A stretch of 60,624 bases of DNA, the filler included, from Hausera hauseri (Eukaryota), in assembly GCA_046269625.1 (NCBI GenBank). It is 10 parts of 10 records of this genome, joined end to end, with 100 filler letters (N's around TTAATTAATTAA, not from the genome) between each part and the next. Parts side by side here need not be neighbours in the genome. Positions count along the whole stretch, not along the records: positions 32,349 to 42,944 come from JBJURY010166642.1; 9 more parts are not named here. The stretch is one strand, 5' to 3'. This document shows positions 1,278 to 42,944 of this stretch, one piece after another. The notes under the pieces are model-generated. The model was given only the letters and a program-made list of their open reading frames with translations, searched no databases and was not told where the DNA came from. How positions within the stretch are numbered: the first letter of the stretch is position 1; every line of letters begins with the position of its first letter. A program made the translations under genes and the position numbers.

Positions 1278-1619
1278 TATATGTTGGCAAATTATGAATA
1301 CAGAACTTTGTAAATTTATAGAATGTTTATTGTCATATACAAACGTAAACAAATTGTTACTTTAATTACCATGTCAGTCACAATAAATTAAATGACACCT
1401 GTCAATAAGACATCTTGCACTGCTTCTTATTAACGAGGATAACGAAATCAGTTTTCATGCATGTAACAAATCGAATTCTATTTTCCAGACGACTGATGAT
1501 GTTAACTGTCTGGTTTGCACACTTGAAATTTTTTTTATCATCAAGAATATTTGATGGGACATGTATTTGTTGCTGCAAAATGATAAGGTAATCAGTAAGC
1601 CTCTTATTAATACCGAGAT

Positions 1620-1975
1620 CATCACCATCATATTTGTGTCACGCTGCGAAGCGTAGGTCGTCATTGATCTCCATCTCTCGCGATTCCTGGTGTCACCGAT
1701 CATTTCTACCGTTGATTGACTTCTGAACCATTCACGCAAACCATCCAGACACTTCGTTCTCTGCCGTCAACTACTTCTATTTCCTGGCATTTTGCTCACT
1801 TTGACCAGGTTCTAAAGACGTTTATTCTTAAAACATGGTCAATAATTGTCTCTTTCTGATCTTACTGATGGGCGTTCGTTCTGCATGTGCTTCGTGCAAA
1901 ACATCTTCATTTGTTCTCCGTGCTGTCTATAGAATTTTCAGCATTACGAGAAACCACATCTCTATTGTTTTCAAA
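1620..1975 (-). mobile_element. RTE-clade LINE 3' end
   Basis: Decayed EMWFL..MLKI..TARRTNEDVL...KIRKRQ...LDGLREW...RNRERWRSM, followed by an (ATG)n-like tail. Typical RTE ORF2 C-terminus. Confidence 0.8.
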
Positions 1976-2288
1976 AAAACTTTCAACATGCTGATTTAAT
2001 ATCTAAGATTTGCAGCACTACGTGAGGATGAATTTGATAAAACACTATAGGACTCCCTTTCTTAATGAAATAACAGATCTGTCATGGTCCCCAGCTGAGA
2101 CGTGGATCACTTCTACGAGGCCAAGCATTGCACTAAAGCCTGGAAGACCTCGGTTCACCCTTCTAGACACCACTGGGACAGCATAGATGCTCAATGCAAC
2201 TACTCCTGAGTCCTTCTTAGGACTACAGCCTAAGGTGATGAGGAGATCAAACAACAGCAACAACACCAACAGATCTGTCGCATACGGC

Positions 2289-2392
2289 AGAGCTGCAGAG
2301 TCGGAGTCAGAGTCGAAGAGTCGGAGTCAAATTATTTTTGGTGTTGAGGGAGTCAAACTCAGAGTCAGATGAAATGTTCCGATTCTGATTCT
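2289..2392 (+). mobile_element. hAT-type MITE remnant
   Basis: Starts CAGAGCTGCAGAGTCGGAGTC with subterminal GAGTC(G) repeats and degenerate inverse copies (ccgattctgattc) at the right end. Confidence 0.5.
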
Positions 2393-2709
2393 TAATAGTT
2401 GAAAAGATGGTTAATATCACGACAGATAGCAACATACTCATCAGGATTGACTTTTTTTTTAACAAAACAATCGGCGCCAAAGACGATTATTTCTGTGAAC
2501 ATAGTTGCAGCATTCAGCCGTGGCTAATGAGGATGTGTGTGCTGAATATTTATTCTTTAATGGAATCGCTTTGTTTTAGCATCCAGCAATGTCTGGATTT
2601 GCAGGAAGGCACATCGGTGGAAAGGAAGAAGGTCCTATAAAGTTCAATAATGCTTATACTGTTTTGTCTTGTCTTTGATACACGGTCATCCAGCGTCAGC
2701 TCTTGTTGT

Positions 2710-2835
2710 ACACTGTTTTATGGAAGTTAGTCATGGGAAATGAATAAACAAAAGATAAAAGCATGTAGAGGCTACAGAGATGTTGTTCGTGAAAAGTTTG
2801 ATGAAAATATCATGGACAGAGAAAAAAGTTAAGTA
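2710..2835 (+). mobile_element. RTE LINE ORF2 fragment
   Basis: Decayed YGS*SWEMNK...EATEM..VKSLMKISWTEKK. Confidence 0.65.
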
Positions 2836-3834
2836 ATTCTATTTTGAAAGTAGCTGAAAAGAGAAAAGAAAAAAACGATTCCGATATTAAAAAAAAATAA
2901 TTTCACAACATAGCATGGACAAAAATATCAACATGCTTGATATCGAGCACAAGAGATAGCTAGATGTGGAGAGACATGATCGCCAATGCCATTAGACAGG
3001 GTACTTGAAGATGATGATGAGATCACTGGTGTGGATTCATCTCTATTGCGAGCTCTGCCATTTCTGTCTTTGCTAATAGGTTTCAGTTGTTCTCTGTATG
3101 TAAAAACGAAAGTTTTCAAGCCTACATGGCTTTCTCTGTTGCTTTAAAAGCATAGTCTCGTTTTTCTAGATAAAATAGAGTCATTACTTTAAAATTGTTC
3201 ACACACTGATCAAAAGCCAGTCCTTCCTTTTTTTTTTAACTGCAGGTGAATCTTATATTTGCTTGGATTTAGTCCTGGTACCGCAAATTTAAGCGTGAAA
3301 AAAGGATACGTCATGATGCAACGCAAAGAAGACTTAGCGACGGTATAGGAAAATATTGTAACACTTTACGTAAGATTATTTATCCCTCAGGTTTGGACAA
3401 AAAAAGGGGGAGTGGGGGGGGGGGGGTTAGTATATAGTGCGTGTTTGGGATATGATTTCAGGAGGTACCTAATTGAATAAGTATTTCAGGAGGAGCTTAT
3501 AATTTGTTATATGGGCAATATATTTGATATTTTGCTATATAGGCTATATATTAAGGGGAGATAATCCTCCTCCGCCTGCAGAATGGTAGTAAGACTGTTT
3601 TTCTGCAACGTTAACATTTTTTATGACGTAATTTTTATGTAATTAATTAAAATTTTGTCAAGTTAGGTAGATAACATAGGTGGATAATAAGAAGGGATGA
3701 TGAGATGTGAGTATTATCATATAACTTGCCGTATTTATTGTTAAGGCCGTTAGTGGCCAAGACCTTCCGTCACCTCCATTAAAAAGTATATAGTTAATTA
3801 AGTAATTAAGTATTTGTATAGTTATTTACATAAA

Positions 3835-21500: not shown

Positions 21501-22521
21501 GCTATACATCCTTATTCATTAGGTGTTCCGATGAACTTGCGGTCAACCAATAATCGTTGCTTCCATGGCTTTATCACCCAATTTCCGATCCATGCTGAAC
21601 ATCATAAGCAAACCATTTGCGCAACCCCTCTTCAATACCAATTTTCAACTTAATTTCCGAAAAATTTATTTGTTATGACAAAATTACACAATTAGAAAAT
21701 AACGACAAATCAAATAAATAAACTGAAAAGAAAATTACCCAAATCTCTTACGGGTGAAGCGTTGACATTGACGTTATTTCCTTCTGCCATTATTGGTTAT
21801 AACGATAAGTTTTGTAATACTGCAATAAACTTTAATTTCTTGATAAATCATAATATGTAAATACCTAGTCTTCTTGAGGTCCAACAATGATTCTGTGGAT
21901 GTGAGAATGAATATCTACTGTTTTTGCGTGTTTTTGAGTGTTTATTGCACAGGTATTTATAGTGGGTCGTTCGACACCACAACGTTTGTTTCCATTTTTA
22001 GAAATGGAATTTTTTAATTTTCAAAATTGGAATGTTCGACACCATGTCGTTTCGTTCCATTTTTAGAAAATGGACTTTTAATTTTACATATTGTTTTTTG
22101 CATTTGCAATTTCAATTTTTTATAATTATTCAGGTTTATAATATTCAAAACTTATATTTTCTACAACCTATTCTACAACCTATTTTATAATTTACAGTTT
22201 TCAAATTATTCAATTTCGTTCTTCATAACATATCTTTCTTAATTTACTCATTTATTTTATAACGTATCTTTCCAGTTTACCCATCTAGAGCTAGGGATAC
22301 ATTAATTGTACAAAAGACAGGAAAAATAGGAATGTCCATCATGTGGGACTTAACATGTTAAAACAAAAGGAAATTGAGGCCAATTTTTTAATCAATTACA
22401 ATGTACATATTCATCACCAAAAATGTGTATCAATGAAGGTGTAGTTTCATCATCACAATGTTGTTTAAAGGTTCGTCATCACATCATCATCGCAATGTTG
22501 TTTAAGGGGTCGGAACAGTTC

Positions 22522-25245
22522 CACCACCATCTATTCGACCACTGATTTAGCTAAAGCATACCATCAAATACCGGTGGCACCCGACGACATAGAAAAAACG
22601 GCCGTCACTACTCATTTTGGTCTCTACGAATACCTGTTTATGTCATTCGGTTTGCGGAATGCCGCACAAACTTTTCAGCGGCACATTGATTCAATTCTTT
22701 TTGACTTCCCGTTTGCACATCCTTATATCGATGATATTCTGGTCGTTTCATCTTCGGCCAAAGAACATGAGGAACACCTTTGCGCAATATTCCAAAGTCT
22801 TAACCACCATAATCTCCAAGTCAATTTTGACAAATTCCATTTCTTCAAAAAGCGCATTAACTTTTTGGGCCACGGTATTTCACCAGACGGTCATTCTCCC
22901 CAACCAGACCGAGTCGAAGCTCTCAAAAACATCCAGTTGCCACGTACAGTCACCGAAATGCGCAGCTTCCTTGGCACACTACACTTTGTACATAAATATG
23001 TATCATATTGCTCCTAATTGACAGCATTATTCGCACACCTAAGCGGTGGCAAAAAAACATCAGCCAATGCAGTGGACACCTGAATTTGTTGACAAATTTG
23101 ATAAGCTACGCAAAGGAATTAAGACCGTCGATATTCTAGCTTTTCCCAAGCCTGATGCAGAACTTATCCTTACTACAGACGCGTCAACCACTGCAGTAGG
23201 CGCCGTACTCCACCAGATCTACAAGGGAGAAAACCAACCACTGGAATTTTTTTCTCGCAAGCTAACAGCACCTGAAACCAGACATTCCACGTTCGATCGA
23301 AAACTATTGGCCATCGTTCTCGCTCTAAAGCATTTCTCACACCTACTTGTCGCTCTTCATTTCACTATACAAGCCGATCACAAGCTCTTACTTAACATCA
23401 TGTCTATGAAACACCCTTCCACACTCCAAGAACGCCAAATATCATACTTATCGACATTTAACTTCGATATTAAACACATTAACGGGGTTAACAATTTAGG
23501 TGCTGATTTTTTATCTAGGTCGGTTAGTTCGACTAATTTGTCACCGATTTTTACGCAATATCAACTTCAACAGAACCAACCACCTCAGGACATGCTTGAT
23601 TCTTTCAAATCTTGCACAATCGTTGAATGCGTGGCTATAGACACCCACAAATCAAGCCATTCCGTAATAATTCTAGCACCATCATTGCAAAGGCAAGCAT
23701 TTCACAATGTGCATTCACTACACCATCCTGGTGCTAAAGCCACTTTTCGTCTACTCCATCAACAATTAATTTGGCCGTCAATGCGTTCTGATGTTCAGGC
23801 GTGGCTTAAGGAGTGTGTGGCTTGCCATTTAAAGCCACCACTGTTCCACTTTCCCTGCACATCGCGTTTCGAATCCGTGCATATCGACATCGTCGGCCCT
23901 CTTCCTCCATACAACGTCATCAATTCATTCTCACCATGATGGACCGTTCCTCGCGATGGCCAGAAGCCATCCCTCTGCGCAGCACAAATACCGACACTAT
24001 TGCTGACGTTTTCATTCTTACATGGATTAGCAGGTTTGGATCACCTTGCTTCATCATCACGAACCAGGGTCCACAGTTTGAATCCAACCTGTTCAAATCC
24101 CTTGTTAACTGATTGGGGATCCATCACATACATACTACGTCTTATCACCCCCAATCGAATGGCCCTTTAGAACGTTTCCATCGAACATGGAAAACGTCTC
24201 TAAGAATTCTTGCAGAGTCCAACACTAGTTGGACGAATCTTCTTCCGTTCGTTCTGCTCGGCTGGCGGAACATTCCGTCCACTTCTACAGGATGCTGACC
24301 TACTGAAGCCTTATTCGGAGCTCCTGTCCGATCATTATTCGAACTAACTGCCCTAGACGACACTCCGACGGATGAGACGATACGGATGGCGTAAAATCAC
24401 TTTGTCGATGTCAGCAAAAATTTGTTCTGCAGAATATTTCACAAAGACAAAACATACTTACCCAAAGATTTGTATTCGGCGAAATTCATATGGCTAATGA
24501 ATCAAGCGCCTTGGGGTTTCCAGCTGCGGTATCTGGGGCCCTATAAACTGATACAGCTACACTCGCACAACGTCATTATCTCTAAAGACGGCAAAGACCT
24601 TTTAATACACATTACCAACTTAAAGCCCGCTTTCTTTGTCGACGGCACCTTATCAACCGACACGTCAACCTGTTTTCTCACTCCTCCACTCCTTGCTATT
24701 CCTATATCTATTGCTACACCATTTCCACCTTCCTCTTCTGCGCCTAGTCCTGCTCCATCACTTTCTACACTTTCTACTTCTATTCCTACCACTCCCTCTG
24801 TATCATCTGCCTCTTCCACTATTTCACCCAACTCAATTCCAATCTCTACTCCAACTCTGTCCTCTTTTCCTTTATCCGCCACTACACCTTTCATCACTCC
24901 TTCGCCTTCTAACACTCTTTTCAATGCCTTTAACCATCCGTCTCCAACAATCCTTCTTCCTTCTTCGTCTTCTTCTATTTATCCCGCCTCATCTTCCACG
25001 ACACAACACCCCCACCAAAATCTAACAATTTTTCCCCAACCTCAACCTCTGCAAACAAACGAATCGCATAAACACACAACACGCAGAGTCACATTCAGCA
25101 AGTATAACAGGGAAAAATCAGTCGAAGGTACACAACGTCTTATTCACACTAAGCTCCACTGACACAAACCCTTTTCGTTTTGCGAATTTTTCTCTCTGTC
25201 CTTTTTTACTCTTCATAGTTTTAACCTTGCCACGAAGGTGGGTTA
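22522..25245 (+). mobile_element. Ty3/gypsy pol (5'-truncated RT, RNase H, integrase, S/T/P-rich tail)
   Basis: [55 protein letters not shown] and LERFHR. Frameshifted. Confidence 0.95.
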
Positions 25246-27685: not shown

Positions 27686-30600
27686 CCCCCCCCCGGTGGG
27701 AAAGTTGAAACTATGCAGGATAAAAGAAAAAGAGAAAAAGGCGCAAAACGAAAAGTGTGTTAGCTGAGCTTAGTGTGTATAAGGCGTTGAATACCTGCGA
27801 CTGATTTTTCCCTACTATATTGGCTGAATGTGACTCTGCGTGTTGTGTGTTTGTGCAGTGTGTTTGTTTGCAGAGATTTATGTTGGGGAAAAATTGTTAG
27901 ATTTTAGTGTAGATGTTGTATCGTGCGAAGATGAATAGGAAGTTGAAGAAGGAAGAGTGATTGTTGAAGATGGAGGGTTAAAGGTATTGAAACGAGTAGT
28001 AGAAGACGAAGGAGTGATGACAGGTGTAGTGGTGGATAAAGGAAGAGAAGAAAAAGTTGGAGGAGAGATTGGAGTTGTGTTAAGTGAAAGAGTTGAAGAA
28101 GATGATGATACAGAAGGAGTGGTAGAGATAGGAAGAGTGGTAGGAATAGAAGGAGGAAATGTAAGAAATGATGAAGCAAGACTAGGCGTGGGAAGGGCAG
28201 GTGGAAATGGTATAGTAATAGATGTATGGATAGCAGGGAGTGGAGGAGTACGTAAAGAAGCTAGCGTGTCAGTTGGTAAGGTGTCGTCGACAAAGAAAGC
28301 TGGCTTTAGGTTAGTGATGTGTACTGTGAAGTCTTTACCGTCTTTGGAGATGATTGCATTATGCGAGTGTAGCTGTAACAGTTTGTAGGTACACAGATAC
28401 CGTGGCTGGAAACCGCAAGGAGCTTGATTCTTCAGCCATACGAATTTGGCCGTGTACAAATAATCGGGTAGTTATGTTTTATCTTTGTGAAGTATCCTGC
28501 AAAACGAATCCTTGCTGACATCGACGAAGTGATTTTGCGCCGCCCGTATCGTCTCATCTGTGGGAGTGTCGTCTAAGGCGGTTAATTCAAATAATGATCG
28601 GACAGGTGCTCCGAATAAGGCTTCAGTCGGTGAGCATCCTGTAGAAGTGGATGGAGTGTTCCGCCAGCCGAGCAGAACAAACGGAAGATTGGTCCAACTA
28701 CTGTTGGACTCTGCGAGAATGCGTAGTGATGTTTTCAGTGTGCGGTGGAAGCGTTTTAGGAGGTCGTTCGATTGGGGATGATAAGGTGTAGTATGTATGT
28801 GATGGATTCCCAATCGGTTAACAAGGGATTTGAACAGGTTGGATTCAAACTGTGGACCCTGGTCCGTGATGATGAAACGAGGTGATCCAAACCTGCTAAT
28901 CCATGTGCCAATGAAAACGTCAGCTATGGTGTCGGTGTTTGTGCTCCGCAGAGGGATGGCTTCTGGCCATCGCAAGGAACGGTACATCATGGTGAAGATG
29001 AATTAATGACCGTTGTCTGGAGGAAGACGGCCAACGATGTCGATATGCACGGACTCGAAACGCGATGTGCAGGGAAAGTGGCATAGTGGTGGCTTTAAAT
29101 ACTTAGCTGTTTGGTATTTTTGGCATGCCACAACCTTAACCCATGCCTGCACATCAGAATGCATTGACGGCCATATTACCTGTGGGTGGAGAAGACGAAA
29201 AGTGGCTTTAGCACCAGGATGGTGTAATGAATGCACGTGGTGAAATGCTTGCCTTTGCAATGAAGGTGTTAGAATTATTACTGAATGGCCTAATTTGGAC
29301 GTGTCCAAAGCCACTCAGTCAACGATTGTGCAAGATTTAAAAGACTTAAGCATGTCTTGAGGTGGCTGGTTCTGTCGAAGTTGTTCTTGCGTAAAAATCG
29401 GAGAAAAATTAATAGAACTAACCGACTTAGATAAAAAATCAGCAAACAATTGTTAACCCCACTGATATGTTTAATATCAAAATTAAATGTCGACAAGTAT
29501 GATATTTGCCGTTCTTTGCGTGTGGAAGGGTGTTTCATGGCCATGATGTTAAGTAAAGGCTTATGATCTGTTTGTAGAGTAAAATGACGAGCTACAAGTA
29601 GGTGCGAAAAGTGCTTTAAGGCGAGAACGATTGCTAATAGTTCTCGATCAAACGTGGAATATCGGGTTTCAGGTACGGTTAGTTTTCGAGAGAAAAATTC
29701 CAATGGTTGGTTTTCTCCCTTGTAGATATGGTAGAGTACAGCGCCTACAGCAGTTATTGATGCGTCAGTGGTGAGGATGAGCTCTGCATCAGGCTTGGGA
29801 AAAGAAAAATATCTACAGTATTGATGCCTTCGCGTAGCCTGTCGAAATTGTCAACCAGGTCATGTGTCCACTGGATTGGCTGATGTTTTTTGCCGCCGCT
29901 TAGGTGTGCAAATGGAGCTGTTAATTTCAAGCAATATGGTACATATTTATGCACAAAGTGTAGTGTGCCAAGGAAGCTACGCATTTCGGTGGTTGTACGT
30001 AGCAATTGGATGTTTTTAAGGGCTTCGACTCGGTCTGACTGGGGAGAATGACCGTCTGGTGTGATAACGTGGCCTAAGAAGTTAATTGGTTTTTTGAAAA
30101 AGCCACATTTGTCGAAGTTAATCTGGAGATTATGGTGGTGAAGAAGTTGGAATATTGAGCGAAGATGTTCTTTATGCTGTTTTGCAGAAGATAAAACGAC
30201 TAAAATATCGTCGATATAAGGGTGTGCAAACGAGAAATCGGAAAGAATGGAATCGATGTGTCGCTGAAAGGTTTGTGCGGCATTTCGTAAACCGAATAGC
30301 ATAAATAGATATTCGTAGAGACCAAACGGAGTAGTTACTGCGGTTTTTTCGATGTCTTCAGGTGCTACCGGTATTTTATGGTAGGCTTTAGCTAAATCAA
30401 TGGTTAAATAGATGGTGTTGGAATTAAGGCGATGTAAGATATCCTTGATGAGTGGTAAAGGGTACGCATCCATGATTGTCAAGTTGTTTAGCTCTCGGTA
30501 GTCACCTCATGGTTGAAAAGTACCGTCTTTTTTGTACCACGTGTAAAGGTGATGACCAAGGAGATTTGGAACGACGTATTATGCCGGAGCGTTCTAGTTC

Positions 30601-32348: not shown

Positions 32349-33253
32349 GTCTTTCTAACATTTCGTATACTGTAAATCCGGTCACAATGAATTTATACAA
32401 GCAATGGTTTATATCTTCTTGGACTTCTATGAAATCTTTGTCCTTTTCGAGTTGTAACTTTGTGATTCCTGTAACATCGGGAAACGTATCTTTTACTTTA
32501 GTTCTAGGTGCAATTATTTTGTCTATAATCTCTTCTACATTTGTGCTTCGGATAGAGACTTCAATTGGGGTGTTACATCCATCGACCTTTTCCCCATAGT
32601 TTACGTCTAGAATTTGAGTATTCCTCCGTCTGGAACTAGCCTGAATGATTCTCCATTTCGTTCTATCTCATCCTCGGAGTGCTTCTGTATACACAATATA
32701 GGTGATAGTGGCCTCATCACTTCTGTTCGTAGGGTTAACTCGAACATAAGCTTGGTTGGATGTTCTGCGATTCTGAACTCCAAAGCGTAATTCATGAGTC
32801 TATAGCAACATAGCTCATATGTACTAAATTTCCATTGTTGCCCCTTCTAAGTACTACAGGATTGTCCTACGATTCTGTATTGTATTTCTCCATCAGCGAC
32901 ATGTACGTACAATTGCTGATGCGTTGGCTCATATGGAATCATGTCTCTTAATAGGTATGCTCGTGCATCTTTTGGGCTTCGCATTGCGTATAATCGGATT
33001 AGTCGATTTTCCTCTGTGCCCCCTTTCAATCTATTTGGTATCTTGTTTTCCTGATTGATTCCTACATAAGTTTTATTTTCCAGATTTGCTTCAATCTGGC
33101 GATATAAGCTTTTGGTTGTTGGTTTGAGAACTGTTACATGTTGCTGCAGGAAGTCGTCGATATCGTAATTGAGACTGTGCTAAGTTCTTCGCCTTTTCGG
33201 CCATACTTACTCTGCTGAAATAAAGATAAAGATCACTCCTAAGACATCATCAT
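32349..33253 (-). pseudogene. Accessory ORF with signal-peptide-like start, function unknown
   Basis: MMM / LGVIFIFISAE hydrophobic start, basic KRRR, then a long frame with scattered stops that includes ORFs 33029-32847 and 32795-32607. Confidence 0.45.
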
Positions 33254-33358
33254 TTTGAAACAAAACATTTTCGCTATCTGATGATAGGATAAGCCGATCT
33301 CTAATTGTCATGTTATGTTATCATAAAGTCCGTCTTGGTACCCTTTTACTTTTTACCT

Positions 33359-34610
33359 TTATTGATTTTGACACCGTTTATTATAGTTTTTGGAAACTAA
33401 GAAAATCGTCGCTGTTAATATGACAAGAACGAAAACTGACAAACTGAAGATAGCTATTATCGGCAAGTTATTCGGTTCAATAGAATTTTCCGTAGTAATT
33501 GTATTTTGGGTACTGGTATCCTTCATTGTCAAGGGTTCGTACTGTAAGAGTTTTATGTCTCCTACCTAGTGCGGTAATTTTAGTCACATAATCGTTTTGT
33601 GGTCGTAGGGATTTGCATTCATTTTTTGTGGTTATTTTTCCTTAAGATTACAGTTTGACTAGTATATAAAGTACGACATTCAATTTTAATTTTATAATCT
33701 ACTGTTTCTTCAACATAAAATACAATCTTATTAGGCCGCGCCAAAATTCTAACATGTATGTTTTCCAGTTCTTTCTCGGGCATTTTACTCGAAGTGACAA
33801 TATTAGTAATGAGAATTGTACTTGGAATGGTAGACTGCCTTCTCGTAGTCGTTGGGAGCGAGAGTTCCCATATTGCGATTTTGGGCGATATCCCCTCAGA
33901 TAAGTACTTGGCTTGTTTGGGTAAATATTATACAGATCAAATTGTAATTGATAGTTGTGTCCGAGCGGTAATCTGCAGCATGTAGTGGATCGTCATCGTG
34001 CAATAAAACAGTGTTCCGTAGGGGGAGTCGAGGTGCCTAGTGGTATAAATCGAATAGAAATTTGTCTGTCTCCTGGCAGCTCTATTTTGGATTTAATTCG
34101 AATACATTGGTTCTGGAAGTCTTTGGAGATTTCATTAATGTTATAATCGAGAAGTCTTTTAAATGGATCGGTATTTCGGACTATTTTGTCCGTCTAGGCT
34201 TGGTTTGTGCCGTTACGTTCAGATATTTTTATTTCAAGTTCGGTAATTATATAGGCTTGGGCTCCAGGTAGATTATAGTAAAACATTTGAAACTTGTATC
34301 GATATGTTCGTTCAAACTCTAAGTCACAACATTTCTTATGGGCTCCATACGAAAAATCACACGTCTTCATCTCGATACCAATTTTATTCATAAATATTAT
34401 TTGAAACTTTACGTGGTACTGAACTAGATCGTTTGCCTTGAACCAGGCACAGGATTTGCTCCAATCCATATCGTATACTCTGAGAGACTGCAGGTTTTGG
34501 ATATCTCTCCATCTTGCCGCATATTGTTGCTTTTCGGTCAGAGTTATTGATCCGATTTTCGGTATGTACGAAGCTATTAACGATAGAGCAAGAACTATTT
34601 GTACATAGGA
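33359..34610 (-). pseudogene. Type I membrane protein fused downstream of integrase
   Basis: Hydrophobic YVQIVLALSLIASYI is in frame with the integrase tail. Two related C..C..CCxL...Y...F domains, a Thr/Ser-rich stretch, TM LPIIAIFSLSVFVLVILTATIFLV and a short tail follow. Confidence 0.6.
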
Positions 34611-34679
34611 TACCGGTCTTGTTACTATCGACGATGTTTTCTTCTCTCTCTTGGTTTGTCTCGGATTTTCTTTACTTGA

Positions 34680-35998
34680 ACGCAAATTATAGCGTTTAAT
34701 TGGCCTTATTTCCGTTTTGACCGCTCTCTGTATGGATACGACCTCTTCTTTGTCATTTTTATTAATATAGACTGTAGTTGGTATGGTTCTGATAATCTCG
34801 TAAGGTCCTCTGCCGGTACGAGTGAGTTTTAAAGATGTGCCTTTCTTCGCAACCGGATAATGCACATAAACTCCATTTCCTTTCTCCAGGTCATGTGGTT
34901 TAGCCTTCTTATCATATTGCCTTTTAAATTGCTCTTGATATTCTTTGGACAATTCTTTGGCTATTTCCCAACATTTGTGTAGCCTCGTCTGCAATACTTC
35001 AGTGAAATATTGTTCTAGATCATCTGTTTTCACTGTATACGGTATCGTTCCTAAGTCTGTGGGTAGTACAGCTTCTCTACCATACATCATAAAAATGGAG
35101 TAAATCCTGTTGCAGGATGTGTTGTAGTGTTTATGGCAAACTGTGTACCTTCTAAAAATTCATTCCAATCTTTCTGGTTTTTCGCAACTACTGTTAATAA
35201 GATTCGTATAACGATCGCGTTCGTCCGTTCGACCATTCCGTTACATTGCGGGTGGTAAACCGTTGCGGTTAATCGTTCAATTTCAGATATTTTGGTAATC
35301 GTTTCGAATAGTTCACTCGTAAAGTTCCTTTCTCGGTCTGTCAGAATTTGTTCAAAAGGTTCGCACCTGCATATTATTTTCCTTACTACGGCCTCTGCCA
35401 GAGTCTCAGCCTTTTGGTCCACTAATGCCATCATTTCAACGAAATGATTTAATCTATCTATACATGTCAGAATGTACTTTTTATTTTTATGAGTTGTAGG
35501 TAACGGATCTACAATATCCATTGACATCGCTTGCATTGGTCTATCCGGCTCATTTATTGGTTTAAGTTCGGAGATGTAGTTTTCGATTTTTTTCAGTTTG
35601 GTTGCGCATACTTCGCAGGCGCTTACCCAATTATTTACACTAATATATATGCTTGGCCAATAATACTTATTTAATATCCTTTCTAATGTTTTCTTCCATG
35701 ACATGTGTCCAGCTAAGTATGAGTCATGTTTGGCCATTAGTATTTCCATGCGTAATCCCTTCGTTATGACTACCAACTTCCGTCCTTTTCGCTCATAATA
35801 CAGTACATTTTCATGGCTCGCGTCTCTTGTTACGGAGTATTTGTGACCATATTTTTGCAAATGTTTCCGTAATTGGTGTCCTTTTAGTGTTATTTCTTTT
35901 TCTACGAACTCAATGATTTGTTGTATAACCTTGTCCTTCCTCTGCTCAACAGAAATTTTAATCGCTTTATCCAACGCTAGAGCTCGTTGTCTGTCCAT
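34680..35998 (-). pseudogene. Integrase
   Basis: HDSYLAGH...CEVC zinc finger, SMDIVDPLP, LTDRERNFTS, YHPQCNGMVER and GPY module (GRGPYEI). Confidence 0.95.
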
Positions 35999-36010
35999 CA
36001 GTTCTTTAAG

Positions 36011-37330
36011 CTATGCTTTTCTCGTTATAGTAATTTTGCTCGTTTTAGTTTTATGCCTTGATAGTGCATCTGCATCGACATGTTTGCTTCCGGGTTTGTA
36101 TTGAAATTCAATGTTATACCATGAGATCTCTTCGATCCATCGATTGAGTCTATATGTTGGGTTATTTTCTCTACATTTCAAAGTTGTAACCGCTTTGTGA
36201 TTTGTAACAATTATAATTTTCTGACCGTAGACGTATACATTAAAGTGTAGTAGAGCTTCTTTTACAGCTAACGTTTCTAGTTCGGTGATCGAGTAATTCT
36301 TTTTGGACTTCTTTAGTGACCGTCCTCCATATGCGATTGGATGTTCTAGTTCTTCATCCTCTCGTTTTTGAGCTAAATCATACCCAATGCCTTCTTTGCT
36401 GACACCTGTTTTAATTATAAACGGCAGGTTAAAATCAGGATATCTTAAAACAGATTCGCTAGTTAAGATTTTCTTCATTTCTTCGAATGCTCTTTGTTTT
36501 ATGTCCGTCTATTTCCATTTGATTCCCTTTTTAAGTAATTGGTATGAAGGTACATTTATTTTTGAATTATCCGGTACGTAAGTGGCGTAATATCCACATA
36601 AACCTAATCAATGCCTCAGCTCCTTTTGGTTCTGGGGTTCCATACAATCCGATATCTTACTTAGCAATGATTTATCCTGTTTCGATCCGCCTTCTCCAAA
36701 TATATGTCCGAGATAGGAAACAGCGTTTTGGGCCCATTTACATTTCTTCGGATTCAATTTCAGTTCAGCTTGCTCCAACCTCATGAGCGTATACTCAATA
36801 TCCTTTAAATGCTCTTCTTCTGTTTTCGATGCAGTCATTACGTCGTCCAGGTACATAAACGCGTGTTTCAGTCCCATTAGCATCTTGTTCATCATTCGAG
36901 TAAAGATGGCTGGTCCAGTAGTTATTCCGAATGGCATGACATTGAATTCATATACACCATCGTGTGTTTTGAACGCATTTTTGTAACGACCTTCTTCTTC
37001 TATTTCTACTTGCCAATATCCTGATTGTAGATTGAGCGTGGTAAACCATTTGGCTCCGGAAAGTCTATCTAGGGCTTCTTTTACCGATGGCAGTGGGAAA
37101 GAATTTTTCATCATAAGTGTGTTTAATGCTCGATAGTCAATACAAAATCGGTGCTTTGTAGTACCTTTCTTCTTAACCATGAGTATAGGTGAGTACCAAA
37201 ATCTATAGTTTGGTTTAATTATGTCGGCCTTTAACATTTGTTTGACTTCTTTTGTTATCTCAGGCCTTAATGAGTGGAGGTAGGATACCGTTTTGGCATC
37301 TTTTAATCTTCTAAGTCTATTTTGTCATTG
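36011..37330 (-). pseudogene. Reverse transcriptase and RNase H
   Basis: YLDD at 36842-36853. RNase H NYSITELETLAV, TNHKA and HVDADALSR. Confidence 0.95.
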
Positions 37331-37494
37331 GATCCCGGCTTTTTCTTAAGTGGAATTGTTAGACTCAACGCTTTTGCTCTGCCTATGCCTTCTTCATCTT
37401 TTGCGATGACTGAGCTATAATGACAAAGTAACCGTTAAAATCGGCAGTATGCTTCTGGTGAAAATTTAGTTTCAACGTGCGGTGGGAATTCGGC

Positions 37495-38394
37495 TCACTT
37501 GTACGGTTTTTCTTTAACGATTATTGATGATACTCCATATATGTGACCTAGGGTGGTATTGGCATACAATTTGATCGGAGTTGGTGCATTATGGGCTATT
37601 CTAATGGGCACACGGCCCGTCGATACCCTTGTTAATACGTTATTGAGCACGATGTTTGGGTCTAATGATTCCTCGGGTTCAAAATACACTGGCTGGTCGT
37701 CGTATTGACTTATTTTGACATATATTAGTACCTTGATTCTCGGCGAAATATTCTCGTCCACTGGAATCCATACTTCCCCGAATTGCCTATCTTTAGTGGT
37801 TTTGACTCCTTTTATCGGGCCGAGTTCTATTAATTTCCCCGCATGGAAGTCTATCGGAGTATTGGGTAATTGTCTCAACAGATCGCATCATAGGACTACA
37901 TCATATGTTAATTGCTCCGTTACTGAAAATTTGTGACGAAATGATTGTCTCATTATGTGGATTTCTGGTTTCCATCGGAATTTGCTTTTCGATGACTGTC
38001 CGAAAACTCCAATACTCTCGGGATCTGTTGTCGGAGGTGGGTATAAATGTTTCCTTAGAAACTGCGGTATCGAATCGTGCTTAATCAGTGATATATCGGA
38101 TCCCGTGTCTATTAGTGCATAGAATTCCCAATCTTCCAACTGAATTTTCGCGAAGGGTCTACCTTCGATTACCGTGCCATAGTGATTTGGTGCTATTTTT
38201 GGGCCTTGGATCCCTGTCACCTTATAACCATTAATTCTAACTTTAGTAGTTGCAGCTGGCTGGTCGATCAGCTGTCTTAGCTCTGCGTTAGGGTACATTT
38301 CATTGTTCCTGCAATTAACGTCTCCCGTTTCTTGACTTCTAATTGGCGGCTGTATTTCCCGGTCTCCAAAATTCCGCACCTCATGGTCTCTCAA
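37495..38394 (-). pseudogene. Aspartic protease and post-protease region
   Basis: ALIDTGSDISLI (DTG at 38101-38109). The VL*CDLL segment corresponds to the usual ILGxDFL motif with a premature stop. Confidence 0.9.
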
Positions 38395-38403
38395 AAATGT
38401 TGA

Positions 38404-40640
38404 TCAAAATTCATTGGACCTGGGTATTCTAGGTGAATAAATTATTCCCTGGTCGTCGACCGCTGAACAATGATATGAAACGGATGTTCTCCTTGTTTCG
38501 CGCACTTTACGCAATATAACGTAGTATTTCGTTCCCTCATATGGATCTTCCAGACTGAGCGGCTTCCTATAGATACCCGTTTGATATGAGCTCATAGACT
38601 CTTTCTCATAGTCTTCATATATAGGTGCAGTTGGGGGTAATATTGGCAAGGTTGGTTTTATAACTGAGTAGTTTTTGTTTCTATTTGTTCTCGTAACGGC
38701 GTCTCCTGCCTTAGGCTCGTCATTGTCAGAGTTATCTCTTCGTGTCTTGACATTTACGAATTTACGTCTGTAACTAAAAATGTGTCTCTTTTTACGTTTT
38801 CGATTATAATAGCCGACATGTCGCTCCACATCTGTCTTCCACCTACTTTCTTCGTAAGCCTTTAAAAATTTGTTGAAAGGTGTGATAATAGCCGTTAAAA
38901 TTTTGCATGCGAACTCTGTCAAGGTGAATATCTCATATTTATTTATAATCGCTCGAATTATCGCTTTAACCAGTTGAATTAAGAAATAGATTGCTAAGAA
39001 TCCGGATGTGGCTTTTCCGAATATCAGAAATCTTCCCCAAATTTTATACAGTATTTCCCATTTCGCTTGATAACGTAAATCCTCTAGTATTGTATGCATC
39101 GCTCTATTTAATTCATGCGTACGTTGACGTGGGAAAGCGAGAAATTGTCTAAATGCCTCTACTTCTTTTGGCCGGTAAATACATTTTGCTGCTGTGTCTT
39201 GAAACTTATCATCGGTTATTCCTTTTATTAGATTTGTTCCTGTTAACATAGTGGGCGGCGTAACTATTCCACAGTTCGGTAAACTTACCCAATCGATCTC
39301 GTTACGTTTAAACATTGGTTCTCCCAAACTGGTCATACAATTTTTCAGAACTGTCGGTTGGGTAGAGTTTGCCAGCAATACTCTCATAATTGGCGTCACT
39401 AATCTCGGTATGTCCCGATATATTAATGGAACTTCTTGAATGCACCTTTTCTCTTCCACATTAATAGGTACATCCTTCTTTTCGCACTCGTAGATCAGCA
39501 GAACTTTACCGGTCATTTGTCCAAAAACACTTTTTTTCATCGGAATTATTGGTGACGCTAACTCGGGATTGGCATATATTAAAGCTAGTTTGGTTCTCAT
39601 AACTTCTACGTTTAGTTTGCAGTCGTTTGTTATCATCTTGTGGTATAACTCAGTTATTCCGGCTTGTCCCTTGTAGTAAAAATAATCATCTCTATTTTTC
39701 AAATAATCTTCAATTAGAATATCTTGAGTTTCCTGCTTGAACGTTCTGATATTTATCTCGGTTTCTGCTACAAAGAATGCTTCATAATTGGTGGCGTAAA
39801 TTACTACGTCACACCTTGTGAAGACATCTTTCTTCACAAACTTCAACCCTTTGGTATCGGAAATTAATATTGTAGGTGTAGGCTGTTCCGCTACATTCTC
39901 TCGCATTTTTGAGTTCATCTCCGTATTACTAACGTAGTGTTTCCCTGTTGTTTTGTTAAATTTAAGTTCTTTAATTTTAATAAAATTGCAATCAGTCTTG
40001 GCTGGAGGTTCCCAGATTACTATTGAACTTCTAAAAACACAGGTGCCATCCTGGATGTGACACTTTTGGTTTCCCGTATAAAGCTATGAAACATCACCTT
40101 TTGTATGTGCATTTCGGTTTCGTAGAAATCCACAACCACTATGTTTGATTCCAATCCTTTTCCAGTATCGTATTCTGCACCATGGCAGTGACCAGTATTC
40201 ATATCTAATCTTCCTGCTGCTACTTTATATGTTCTGATTATCTTCCTTTGCTGCATTTCTAATTCCATGCCGTCCCATTTCAGCCTGCCTGTTTCTCTAG
40301 CTTGCTTACAATATTGGCGGTCCAAGTTCATTGGGATTAGTGGGGTCGTCGGCTTGATTATAGATGAATGCCCGTGTATTAACCACAATGGAAAATACTG
40401 CGAGATCGTCGCAACATGCATTCTATCCCATCCAATGCGACTAACTCTCGTTGCTGATAGAGGACATATCTTTTTTCTTTCGTTTCTAGTTTATGTGGTC
40501 TCGCATCTTTGCACATTTCCAAACCTATCAATGAATATTTCTGGCCAAGTCTGAATTTGTCGCAATCATATATGGTAACTGCTCCCATTTGCCTTATAGA
40601 CATCACCACAGTCAGGAAATTAATTAACCAGTTTGATTTG
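38404..40640 (-). pseudogene. Chuvirus-like (Jingchuvirales-type) envelope glycoprotein
   Basis: Signal WLINFLTVVMSIRQMGA then IYDC, YSL..LEMC, ECMLRRSRSIFHCG..GHSS, GHCHG, CHIQDGTC..IWE..DC, LYHKMITNDCKL...LALIYANP, GKVLLIYEC, CIQEVPL..VTPIMRVL, IY..EVEAFRQFLAFP, and a TM near 38945-39040. Motif order matches chuvirus glycoproteins as I recall them. Two internal 1-bp frameshifts. Confidence 0.75.
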
Positions 40641-40659
40641 TTTCCTCGATTACTTCCGG

Positions 40660-42944
40660 TTAAGTTTCGTACACGTCTTCGAATCTACTATTATTACTAA
40701 CAAACGGTCCGTTCTGTCGTCCTTCATCTCTTTCGAATAGTTTGGTCCAATCTACTTTCCGGGGTAATTTTCTAGCGGCCTTTCGCGCTAGACTAGTGGC
40801 CTTATTAAATTCATTTTCTCCGGCTTGGTTCGTTCTAATGGCCAAGTATAATAATACTTTCGGCAGTTCTTCTATGGTGTTCTATACCATAAATTTCTCG
40901 ATCACCAATTCATTGCTTAAGGTGCTTCTCGATAATTTGTTGCGGAAATTTTTCATTGTTCTGGCTGCATTCAATATAGATTTCTCCTTTTGGTCTAGTA
41001 TATCGCCATAGAGACTAGAGTGGTTTACTATACGTATCAAATTTTTCATGAGTTCATTTAACTCTTCGTTTTCCGTGTTGAAGGTTGGTATGGACATTTG
41101 CCATAATTCTCTAATTAGATCTCCATTATAGTCCATTTCTTCCCGTGTTTTTCGCGGTCTACCAACAGGATGCTTCTGTTTCGCTATTACCGATGCGGTT
41201 TCACTAGGTGGTACTAAATTCTTATCATACTGTTCTTTATCCTCATCTGTTTGTAAGTATTCAAAATACATTGCTGCGTCTCAAACGCCGATAATCCGTC
41301 CTACACACTGATCAATTTTGGCTTTTCTTGTGTCTTCTTCAACGTCCATTACCGGAAGTTTGGCGTAACAATGTTAATAACTGACATAATTCTTCGGCTA
41401 GAATCAGTCCTCTTTCTTGATAACTTGTTAGTTCATAGGCTACGTCTCTTTGCCATCTTTGCACAAACTGCGACTTGTCGGCTTTCTCCGCTTCCGTAAG
41501 AGCATATTTATTTCTATAGGTCTCGAGCTTGTTCAGTAAATCGTCTAGTCTTATTGCTCTCTGTTTGGTTTTAATTCAATTTTCTTCGATTTGGCGTATC
41601 TGAGGCAACAATTTTCTTATCTTCTCATCGTTAATTTCCTCCATTTCTACCATTAGATGCTCTAAGTCATACATTTCATTAATTTTTAAGTCCGAATCTA
41701 TTGCATCCGATAATTTTTTAGAAATCTAGCTTCTTCGACTCTGAGATGGTGGTCGTCTCTGATCTTTATAAGGTTGGTATGACATCTCTGGTCCGTTCCG
41801 ATCATAAATTCCTGTGGGTCGTGTAAAAATTTTATTGCCTATTCTATCGCTGATCGGTGCTCCGTACAAACGTCCAACGTTTCCAGATCTTGAATCGAGA
41901 TCCCTTTAATAGGTTTCGTTGTCAAGTGCTGAATTCCTTCTAGGCGGACGTTTCTTAGCCTCGGATAGAAGTTACAAGTCATTTTTCGCTTCTGTGTAAA
42001 GTCTATTTCTTCAATCATTTTGAATATATTTTTCAATATCGTCATCTCTTGTTTCCTTTTCATAAAGTTCAATTGACATAATGCATTAAATTGATTCCTA
42101 ATATCTACTTCCGCTCTCATTATATCCAGATTGCTTGCATTTTCTTCTAATTGTTTCTTTACTGTAGGCTCACTTTCTGGGAACTCTTTTATACGGTCTT
42201 CTACTAATTTGCTCAGTCTCGTTATTACCCGAGACCATTCGTCTAGCTGGTTGGCGATATTCGTCTTCGTTAATATTATTTTGTCTAGCATTTTATATGC
42301 GTCTTCTAATTCATCATCTGGGCCTTTGATGAAACTAATAATCCGGTATGCGTAGTTGAATTCATCCTTATATTCATCAATTTCAAGGGTACATGCCTTA
42401 ATTGTGTTTTATGTCTCGTCGTTGTCCAATTTCGTGATTATATTTCTCAAACTATATATCTGTGACTTTTTTTTATTTTCGATGTTAATACGATTTTCCA
42501 GACTTGTATATTGTTTTGATGCGGTGGAGGCAATTTTTATCATCTCCATTAATGGTGGGATATCTAGCGAACTTATACCCAACAATTCCAAATCCACTTG
42601 GTTTTGTTCCCCGACCGCTTTTTCTTTGAGCCTCCTAACCATTTCGAATCAGATTTCGTCAATAACGCGCTCCAAGTTACGTGTTACCCTTTTTAGTTTT
42701 GGATTAACTTCTAATGTATTTCATAATGCTTGGGCCTTTTTTATTCCTGCTTCTACACTCTCTGTATGTCTATCCCACGCTTCAGGGAATTTTACTCCAC
42801 TTTTTATCCATGCTTCTAATGCATGTTTCCGTTTTACTAGCGTTTCTGGAGGAATTTCCTCAGGTTGCCCTAGGTCTGTAGCTTCGCTCAGTTTTCCTTC
42901 ACTATATAATTTCATTTTCTTGTATAATCTTTCTATAAATTGTT
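40660..42944 (-). pseudogene. Long coiled-coil, charged ORF in the gag position; identity unknown
   Basis: ORF pieces starting at 42915, 42642, 42291, 41271 and 40845 all share one frame. Rich in E/K/L/I heptads, with no CCHC knuckle. Confidence 0.6.

Follow-up and report, generated by a model that had tools for sequence, protein, structure and literature searches.

The locus described here raises two linked questions: whether an element that carries an envelope glycoprotein (Env) ahead of its polymerase region (Pol) makes Pol across an in-frame TGA codon, and what the Env tail in front of the protease would do. The element lies on the minus strand of the piece 32349-42944 (JBJURY010166642.1) of the window, i.e., the whole analysed stretch of 60,624 nucleotides, in which ten pieces are joined by N linkers.

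The element and its envelope

Pfam matches follow one another on the minus strand in the order PF24664, protease, reverse transcriptase, RNase H, and integrase (Table 1), and the Pol order PR-RT-RH-IN together with a GPY/F integrase tail is a hallmark of Ty3/gypsy elements. What we see is a decayed copy of a multi-copy Ty3/gypsy element with a chuvirus/gB-type Env in frame ahead of PR-RT-RH-IN, and we consider likely the joint reading that combines this assignment with a TGA private to the copy and an Env tail recruiting ESCRT. No long direct repeat indicative of an LTR pair was found within the 10.6-kb contig, both ends of which apparently lie inside the element. In a Pol tree that contains no named references, the Pol of this copy is joined, on a long branch, to those of seven Env-Pol relatives and set apart from three other Pols of the window (100/100). 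Two further gypsy Pol copies, 84-88% alike, occupy neighbouring pieces (22500-25170 on the plus strand and 27750-30430 on the minus strand); their inverted look is an artefact of piece joining, and tblastn detected no Env match near either of them.

The copy is dead. Two frameshifts and multiple stops disrupt the 5′ third of Env, and there is another frameshift near 35090. The Env-protease frame contains additional stops at 37497, 37437, and 37305 as well as one that interrupts the protease itself (37890); the frame of RT and IN has three (36610, 36511, and 36013), and about 13 codons ahead of the transmembrane segment (TM), present in relatives and sister contigs, are missing. The element family is nevertheless abundant, with 17,120 contigs at 80% likeness or more in one sequencing run and all 30 bins covered; the window may itself derive from this run, so that the sister copies provide a within-genome comparison rather than independent support, and their depth is no copy number. 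Word-indexed protein searches returned no matches, locus searches with the window protein returned nothing, and locus searches with a sequence alignment returned nothing in genomes or viral contigs and one locus in metagenomes.

The assignment of Env is based on PF24664 (Monjiviricetes fusion glycoprotein), which matches in three frames at 40627-38848 (E 2.7e-30, 8.4e-5, and 1.2e-5), on tblastn links between the Env region and relatives, and on a low-confidence structure model (pLDDT 53), for which Foldseek found chu-like virus glycoproteins in BFVD (E 4.8e-8). Against PDB, the same model gave nothing under E 0.001, the best match being HSV-1 gB at a non-significant E of 0.66, and the Env profile searched against PDB sequences retrieved only centrin (E 0.38 or worse).

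Table 1. Positions of the features of the element, counted along the window
Feature	Position	Strand	Basis or remark
Decayed upstream coding region, helical/coiled-coil by eye, running off the contig end	40690..42944	-	sister-copy contigs cover the region
GRP motif, presumably AT-hook-like	41149..41163	-	read from translation; ahead of Env signal
Chuvirus/gB-type (class III) Env; its 5′ end has an internal signal-like segment	38944..40684	-	PF24664, tblastn, Foldseek
Env transmembrane segment	38944..39000	-	mean hydropathy 2.13; aligned with TM of relatives
Env tail/linker to protease, about 260 codons, predicted cytosolic, largely disordered	38164..38943	-	hydropathy, structure model, tail analysis
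Basic cluster, 9 K/R in 15 residues	38761..38805	-	read from translation
PTAP, TSG101-type late-domain motif	38623..38634	-	within local similarity island among sister copies
TGA inside Env tail	38404..38406	-	12 sister-copy contigs without it
Hydrophobic-Tyr-Pro-x3-Leu (ALIX-type form)	38278..38298	-	downstream of TGA, where relatives carry theirs
Aspartic protease	37860..38163	-	PF00077, E 3.2e-6; catalytic DTG 38109-38101; stop at 37890-37888
Reverse transcriptase	36698..37177	-	PF00078, E 1.5e-34; YLDD at 36853
RNase H	36116..36505	-	PF17919, E 1e-29; PF17917
Integrase, H2C2 and core; frameshift near 35090; GPY motif at 34808	34800..35764	-	PF17921, PF00665
Second decayed membrane protein after integrase	33395..34628	-	signal-like 34628-34572, ectodomain, TM 33451-33395, by hydropathy

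The open reading frames starting at 39918 (ATG), 38394 (TTG), and 37878 (TTG) share one frame, as the first-pass annotation had stated, and the junction sequence around the TGA is as it had been quoted there. Among 20 relatives scanned (out of 269 matches), 10 carry PF24664 followed by the protease in one chain, and five of these also include the reverse transcriptase; the protein library consists of stop-free gene calls, a set in which readthrough elements cannot show. Locus L001 has one open 3426-aa frame that runs from cargo through Env and three protease-like motifs to RT and IN. Judging from these frames, the intact family very probably makes one Env-Pol polyprotein, and the proposal that Pol is produced as a membrane-anchored Env-Pol fusion gains support from the shared frame, the open sister copies, and the single chains of relatives, this copy itself being broken. 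Hydropathy, profiled for the natural frames as well as for intact relatives, likewise places the tail and the protease on the predicted cytosolic side, in line with the topology that such a fusion would need. A single TM, at 39000-38944, precedes the 179 codons that lead up to the TGA; in relative P0011, the TM is followed by another segment of moderate hydrophobicity (1.71), which counts against a single-TM topology.

Motifs in the glycoprotein tail

The PTAP reported for this tail is present, and a P(S/T)AP arises in 0.37% of 20,000 shuffles of its 179 residues. Among sister copies the motif has a depth of 1566-3223 and forms one of two local similarity peaks. It also looks kept between copies: the 40 of 51 difference rows from which this was read contain no difference within PTAP, and two flanking differences are silent third-position changes. 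The second high-similarity island, at 38408-38459 on the minus strand, reaches a depth of 3661 just before the TGA. The basic cluster also exists as described, except that the spacing between its H and Y is three residues rather than two; it equals the strongest cluster in 112 other tails, and in relatives the count is 4-8 K/R per 15 residues against nine here, so that the cluster is no constant feature.

We compared motif occurrence in tails, defined as the region from the TM to the protease or to the C-terminus, across all stored matches (152 with the domain, 117 with TM and tail). Three tails under 40 residues were dropped; the stand-alone set comprises 99 tails, and the set of Env-protease fusions comprises 14 after removal of two near-duplicates and addition of L001. 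Each count was set against 1000 shuffles, which ignore kinship. P(T/S)AP is found in 15 of 99 stand-alone tails (shuffle mean 1.0, maximum 5) and, among the 14 fusions, in two, namely this copy and P0010 (shuffle mean 0.05). A hydrophobic residue followed by Tyr-Pro, a pattern picked after the fusion tails had been seen, occurs in 37 of 99 stand-alone tails (mean 7.4, maximum 16) and 11 of 14 fusions (mean 1.7, maximum 6); when four tails seen beforehand are left out, P(T/S)AP and hydrophobic-Tyr-Pro still occur in 14 and 35 of 95, respectively. Per-residue motif rates in tails are at least 8-fold those of ectodomains. PPxY is weakly enriched (8/99 vs. 2.8, reached by 5 of 1000 shuffles) and was not used. 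The form YPxPhi is present in 40 of 99 stand-alone tails against 6.7 in shuffles, whereas Y-nonP-x-Phi shows no excess (47/99 vs. 53.7); therefore, the excess depends on proline. Such a dependence fits the ALIX-type YPXnL class (PMC8402826, in its available part) better than a generic YxxPhi sorting signal. P(T/S)AP or YPXnL motifs above chance are found in a disordered segment predicted to be cytosolic, the trait expected of late domains. In relative P0135, two immunoglobulin domains are fused ahead of the PF24664 glycoprotein, and the tail PTAP adjoins a YP motif.

Of the 37 stand-alone tails that contain the YP motif, 30 have it at a distance of 5-30 residues from the C-terminus; among the 14 fusions, 11 carry it 16-75 residues ahead of the protease, and this copy has it in the x3-L form. 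Because the motif is close to the C-terminus in stand-alone glycoproteins and just before the protease in fusions, it likely marks the old C-terminus of a captured glycoprotein, to which Pol was joined.

On balance, we favour somewhat the view that the tail motifs would bind ESCRT, given their family-wide excess. A less probable alternative is that the motifs are real and selected, but for Env trafficking (endocytosis, lysosomal or multivesicular-body sorting) instead of particle release. ALIX and TSG101 sort cellular cargo too, and YPxL also fits the YxxPhi adaptor signal. Moreover, the position of the motif near the C-terminus is the usual site of glycoprotein sorting signals. A sorting role, however, does not readily account for the enrichment of the proline form only, nor for P(T/S)AP being independently enriched and often placed a few residues from the YP motif, like the p6 pair of HIV (PMC8402826, as far as its available text goes).

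It is rather improbable that the PTAP of this particular element is a chance, functionless tetrapeptide in a proline-rich disordered linker. Its absence from 12 of 14 fusions and the partial set of difference rows leave some room for this explanation, but the low shuffle frequency in this tail, the approximately 15-fold excess in stand-alone tails, and the local similarity peak with silent flanking changes all speak against it.

The first-pass annotation had further proposed that the tail stands in for Gag, and the strongest version of this idea would be a Gag-less element whose Env tail supplies budding as well as RNA packaging via the basic cluster. In the 2.3 kb upstream of Env (40690-42944), no Gag, zinc knuckle, or capsid match and no Pfam domain under E 0.01 was found, and profiles built from the Gag and Bcl-2-like parts of relatives gave no match in this region, which is decayed; the Bcl-2-like profile is shallow (four sequences). 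This null result, together with the strength of the basic cluster, is what such a proposal could draw on. However, the contig ends within the upstream frame, so that the 5′ end of the element is missing, and relatives encode Retrotrans_gag (P0011) or zf-CCHC (P0008) in the same chain as Env, with P0010 and P0020 aligning with the N-terminal Gag of P0011. The planarian Burro elements likewise have a typical Gag, followed by thousands of cargo residues before Env (PMC6431247, available part). A Gag-less element is thus very unlikely, and substitution of Gag by the tail is not supported; the region at 40690-42944 may be a counterpart of a Burro-like cargo slot. In P0003, P0007, and P0008, a GRP motif similar to that of this copy precedes the Env signal. 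In the four relatives whose Gag can be recognised, the part ahead of Env is free of P(T/S)AP and PPxY; one YPxL occurs in the Gag of P0011.

The TGA codon

The TGA is in the frame that had been claimed for it; it does not mark the border between tail and protease, as the protease starts 80 codons further on (around 38163). We compared sister copies over 38330-38700 in one run (165 contigs). At position 38406, 12 contigs, contributing 118 of a depth of 132.2, have another base, with which no stop codon can begin, and the leftover depth of 14 approximates that of one exact-match contig (11.6); the depth at the codon (132) is far below the neighbouring peaks (>3000), and the most abundant subfamily was not aligned across it. 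At least seven more stops interrupt Pol of this copy, which bears out the earlier suggestion that the TGA could be decay. Because 12 sister contigs lack the stop, the codon is 80 codons ahead of the protease, and relatives run unbroken from Env to Pol (10 of the 20 scanned), the TGA is very likely decay private to this copy rather than a readthrough signal.

Programmed readthrough, in which a kept TGA would yield a short-tailed Env as the main product and Env-Pol as the minor one, is largely refuted and now barely credible: the in-frame position between Env and protease, the plausible need for some control where a single ORF forces equal amounts of Env and Pol, and the unreadable codon in the most abundant subfamily are outweighed by the absence of a shared stop among those sister copies whose sequence aligns across the codon, its placement within the tail and ahead of the YP motif of the family, the further stops, one of them inside the protease, and a 3′ context that, compared by eye, is unlike the leaky contexts UGA-CUA/CGG and UAG-CARYYA.

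A second membrane protein and comparison with known elements

Past the integrase, the element encodes a second decayed membrane protein. A profile of the post-integrase ectodomains of relatives matches 33765-33545 (iE 7.6e-4 and 0.027), and at least two hydrophobic segments follow the integrase in all four stored Env-Pol chains that extend beyond it (P0001, P0007, P0013, and P0152); L001 ends likewise, by eye. No convincing Pfam match was obtained in the post-integrase region, and an Atlas search with the first post-integrase domain yielded no usable match. The homologous domain of L001, modelled at pLDDT 80, matched fibronectin type III scaffolds (best E 6.7e-4); the ectodomain of the second membrane protein probably holds fibronectin-III-like repeats, the fold having been modelled for the L001 domain and not for that of the window. 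The protein is a candidate attachment protein for the gB-type fusogen.

Several observations accompany this region. More decayed coding-like sequence, covered by sister-copy contigs, follows the second TM at 32360-33250 on the minus strand, with no Pfam match in the single frame scanned. L001 (2-10282 and 10617-12107) includes a Bcl-2-like stretch recognised by eye, Env, and the protease-like motifs in its long frame, an FN3-fold membrane module between the proteases as well as past the integrase, and a separate RNase_T/DEDD-like ORF downstream (E 1.4e-5). In P0008, P0152, P0007, and P0002, a single polyprotein carries two to four or more aspartic-protease motifs, some of them past the integrase. 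P0001 (HBK71150.1), a complete Env-Pol retroelement polyprotein, is annotated as a hypothetical protein from a Flavobacteriaceae MAG and is probably a binning contaminant.

The closest described systems share parts of this architecture. Burro/GYPSM1 are giant planarian gypsy-like LTR retrotransposons with internal regions of up to 25 kb, in which a single polyprotein joins Gag, an in-frame Env matching mononegavirus fusion glycoproteins, and Pol, in this order; like the element described here, they have an in-frame Env before Pol and a very high copy number, and they have a cargo region before Env as well as decayed copies with stops and frameshifts, reported in a related species (PMC6431247, available part). 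Unlike in Burro, no Bcl-2-like, BIR, MATH, or ankyrin domain was detected in the decayed upstream region of our element, and since no apoptosis-type cargo match was obtained there, with a decayed target and a shallow profile, we did not file it as Burro proper. The GAG-ENV-POL "ancient errantiviruses" of Nematoda, Bryozoa, and Platyhelminthes, with an ENV of HSV/gB type (Chary and Hayashi, PMC13524379), are similar in their Ty3/gypsy Pol, a gB/chuvirus-type Env before Pol, and multiple copies; a gB/chuvirus-type Env upstream of Pol is also what the PF24664 and BFVD matches indicate here. The non-canonical nematode endogenous retroviruses of Sacco et al. (2022, J Gen Virol), as cited in PMC13524379, resemble our element in an Env/Pol order that was flipped after a metavirus captured an RNA-virus glycoprotein. 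Anakin elements use the same chuvirus glycoprotein family; however, according to the available text they combine a BEL/Pao Pol with an Env after the integrase (PMC7642597, PMC10084718), whereas in our element Env precedes the protease and Pol is of the gypsy type, with GPY. Troyka LTR retrotransposons, described as lacking Env and GPY/F (PMC12440569, available part), were rejected as a match, both features being present here.

The Env-Pol fusion is already published, for Burro (PMC6431247) and for GAG-ENV-POL elements (PMC13524379), the stop codon is very likely decay, and both are ordinary. For late-domain motifs in the tail, no report was found in the literature searched, which included few subscription journals and not Sacco et al. 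(2022). The available part of the Burro account (PMC6431247) is silent on tail motifs and on a second membrane protein, and the main text of PMC13524379 does not mention late domain, ESCRT, PTAP, cytoplasmic, fibronectin, or polyprotein; the same text states the entry mechanism of gB-type elements as unknown. The p6 region of HIV-1 provides the nearest parallel, since its disordered segment, directly upstream of the protease, has both motif classes, PTAP and YPXnL, in an order identical to that seen here, but retroviral late domains are located in Gag or matrix proteins, whereas here the motifs are on the tail of a fusion glycoprotein (PMC8402826, available part).

Tentatively, and short of an even chance, we propose that chuvirus/gB-type fusogens carry their own late domains (P(T/S)AP and LYPxL-type) on the cytoplasmic tail, that Gag-Env-Pol elements bud via this tail rather than via Gag, and that they encode an FN3-like second protein. 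For the intact family as such, the likely mechanism is a single polyprotein in which an internal signal would direct the Env ectodomain to the ER lumen, leaving Gag and cargo in the cytosol, and the single TM would return the tail, protease, RT, and integrase to the cytosolic side. The protease would then cut Pol free, and the tail remaining on Env would terminate close to the YP motif, like that of stand-alone glycoproteins. This tail would bind TSG101 through PTAP and ALIX through YPXnL and thereby promote scission or vesicle sorting, which is the job of Gag in retroviruses, and a second signal past the integrase would give rise to a luminal surface protein with fibronectin-III-like domains. 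If the more tentative proposal is true, one membrane-threaded polyprotein would comprise a capsid, a budding-competent fusogen, tethered enzymes, and an FN3-like surface protein that might be the attachment factor so far missing.

The part of these results not found in print is the excess of tail motifs, with a PTAP that is seemingly kept and motifs enriched across the family. With two ESCRT-binding motif classes distributed family-wide, it would be the fusogen, and not Gag or matrix, that carries the late domains, and the YP motif likely shows where Pol was joined to the captured glycoprotein. The tail result would thereby bear on the exit of gB-type invertebrate retroelements and chuvirus-like viruses from cells and on their entry.
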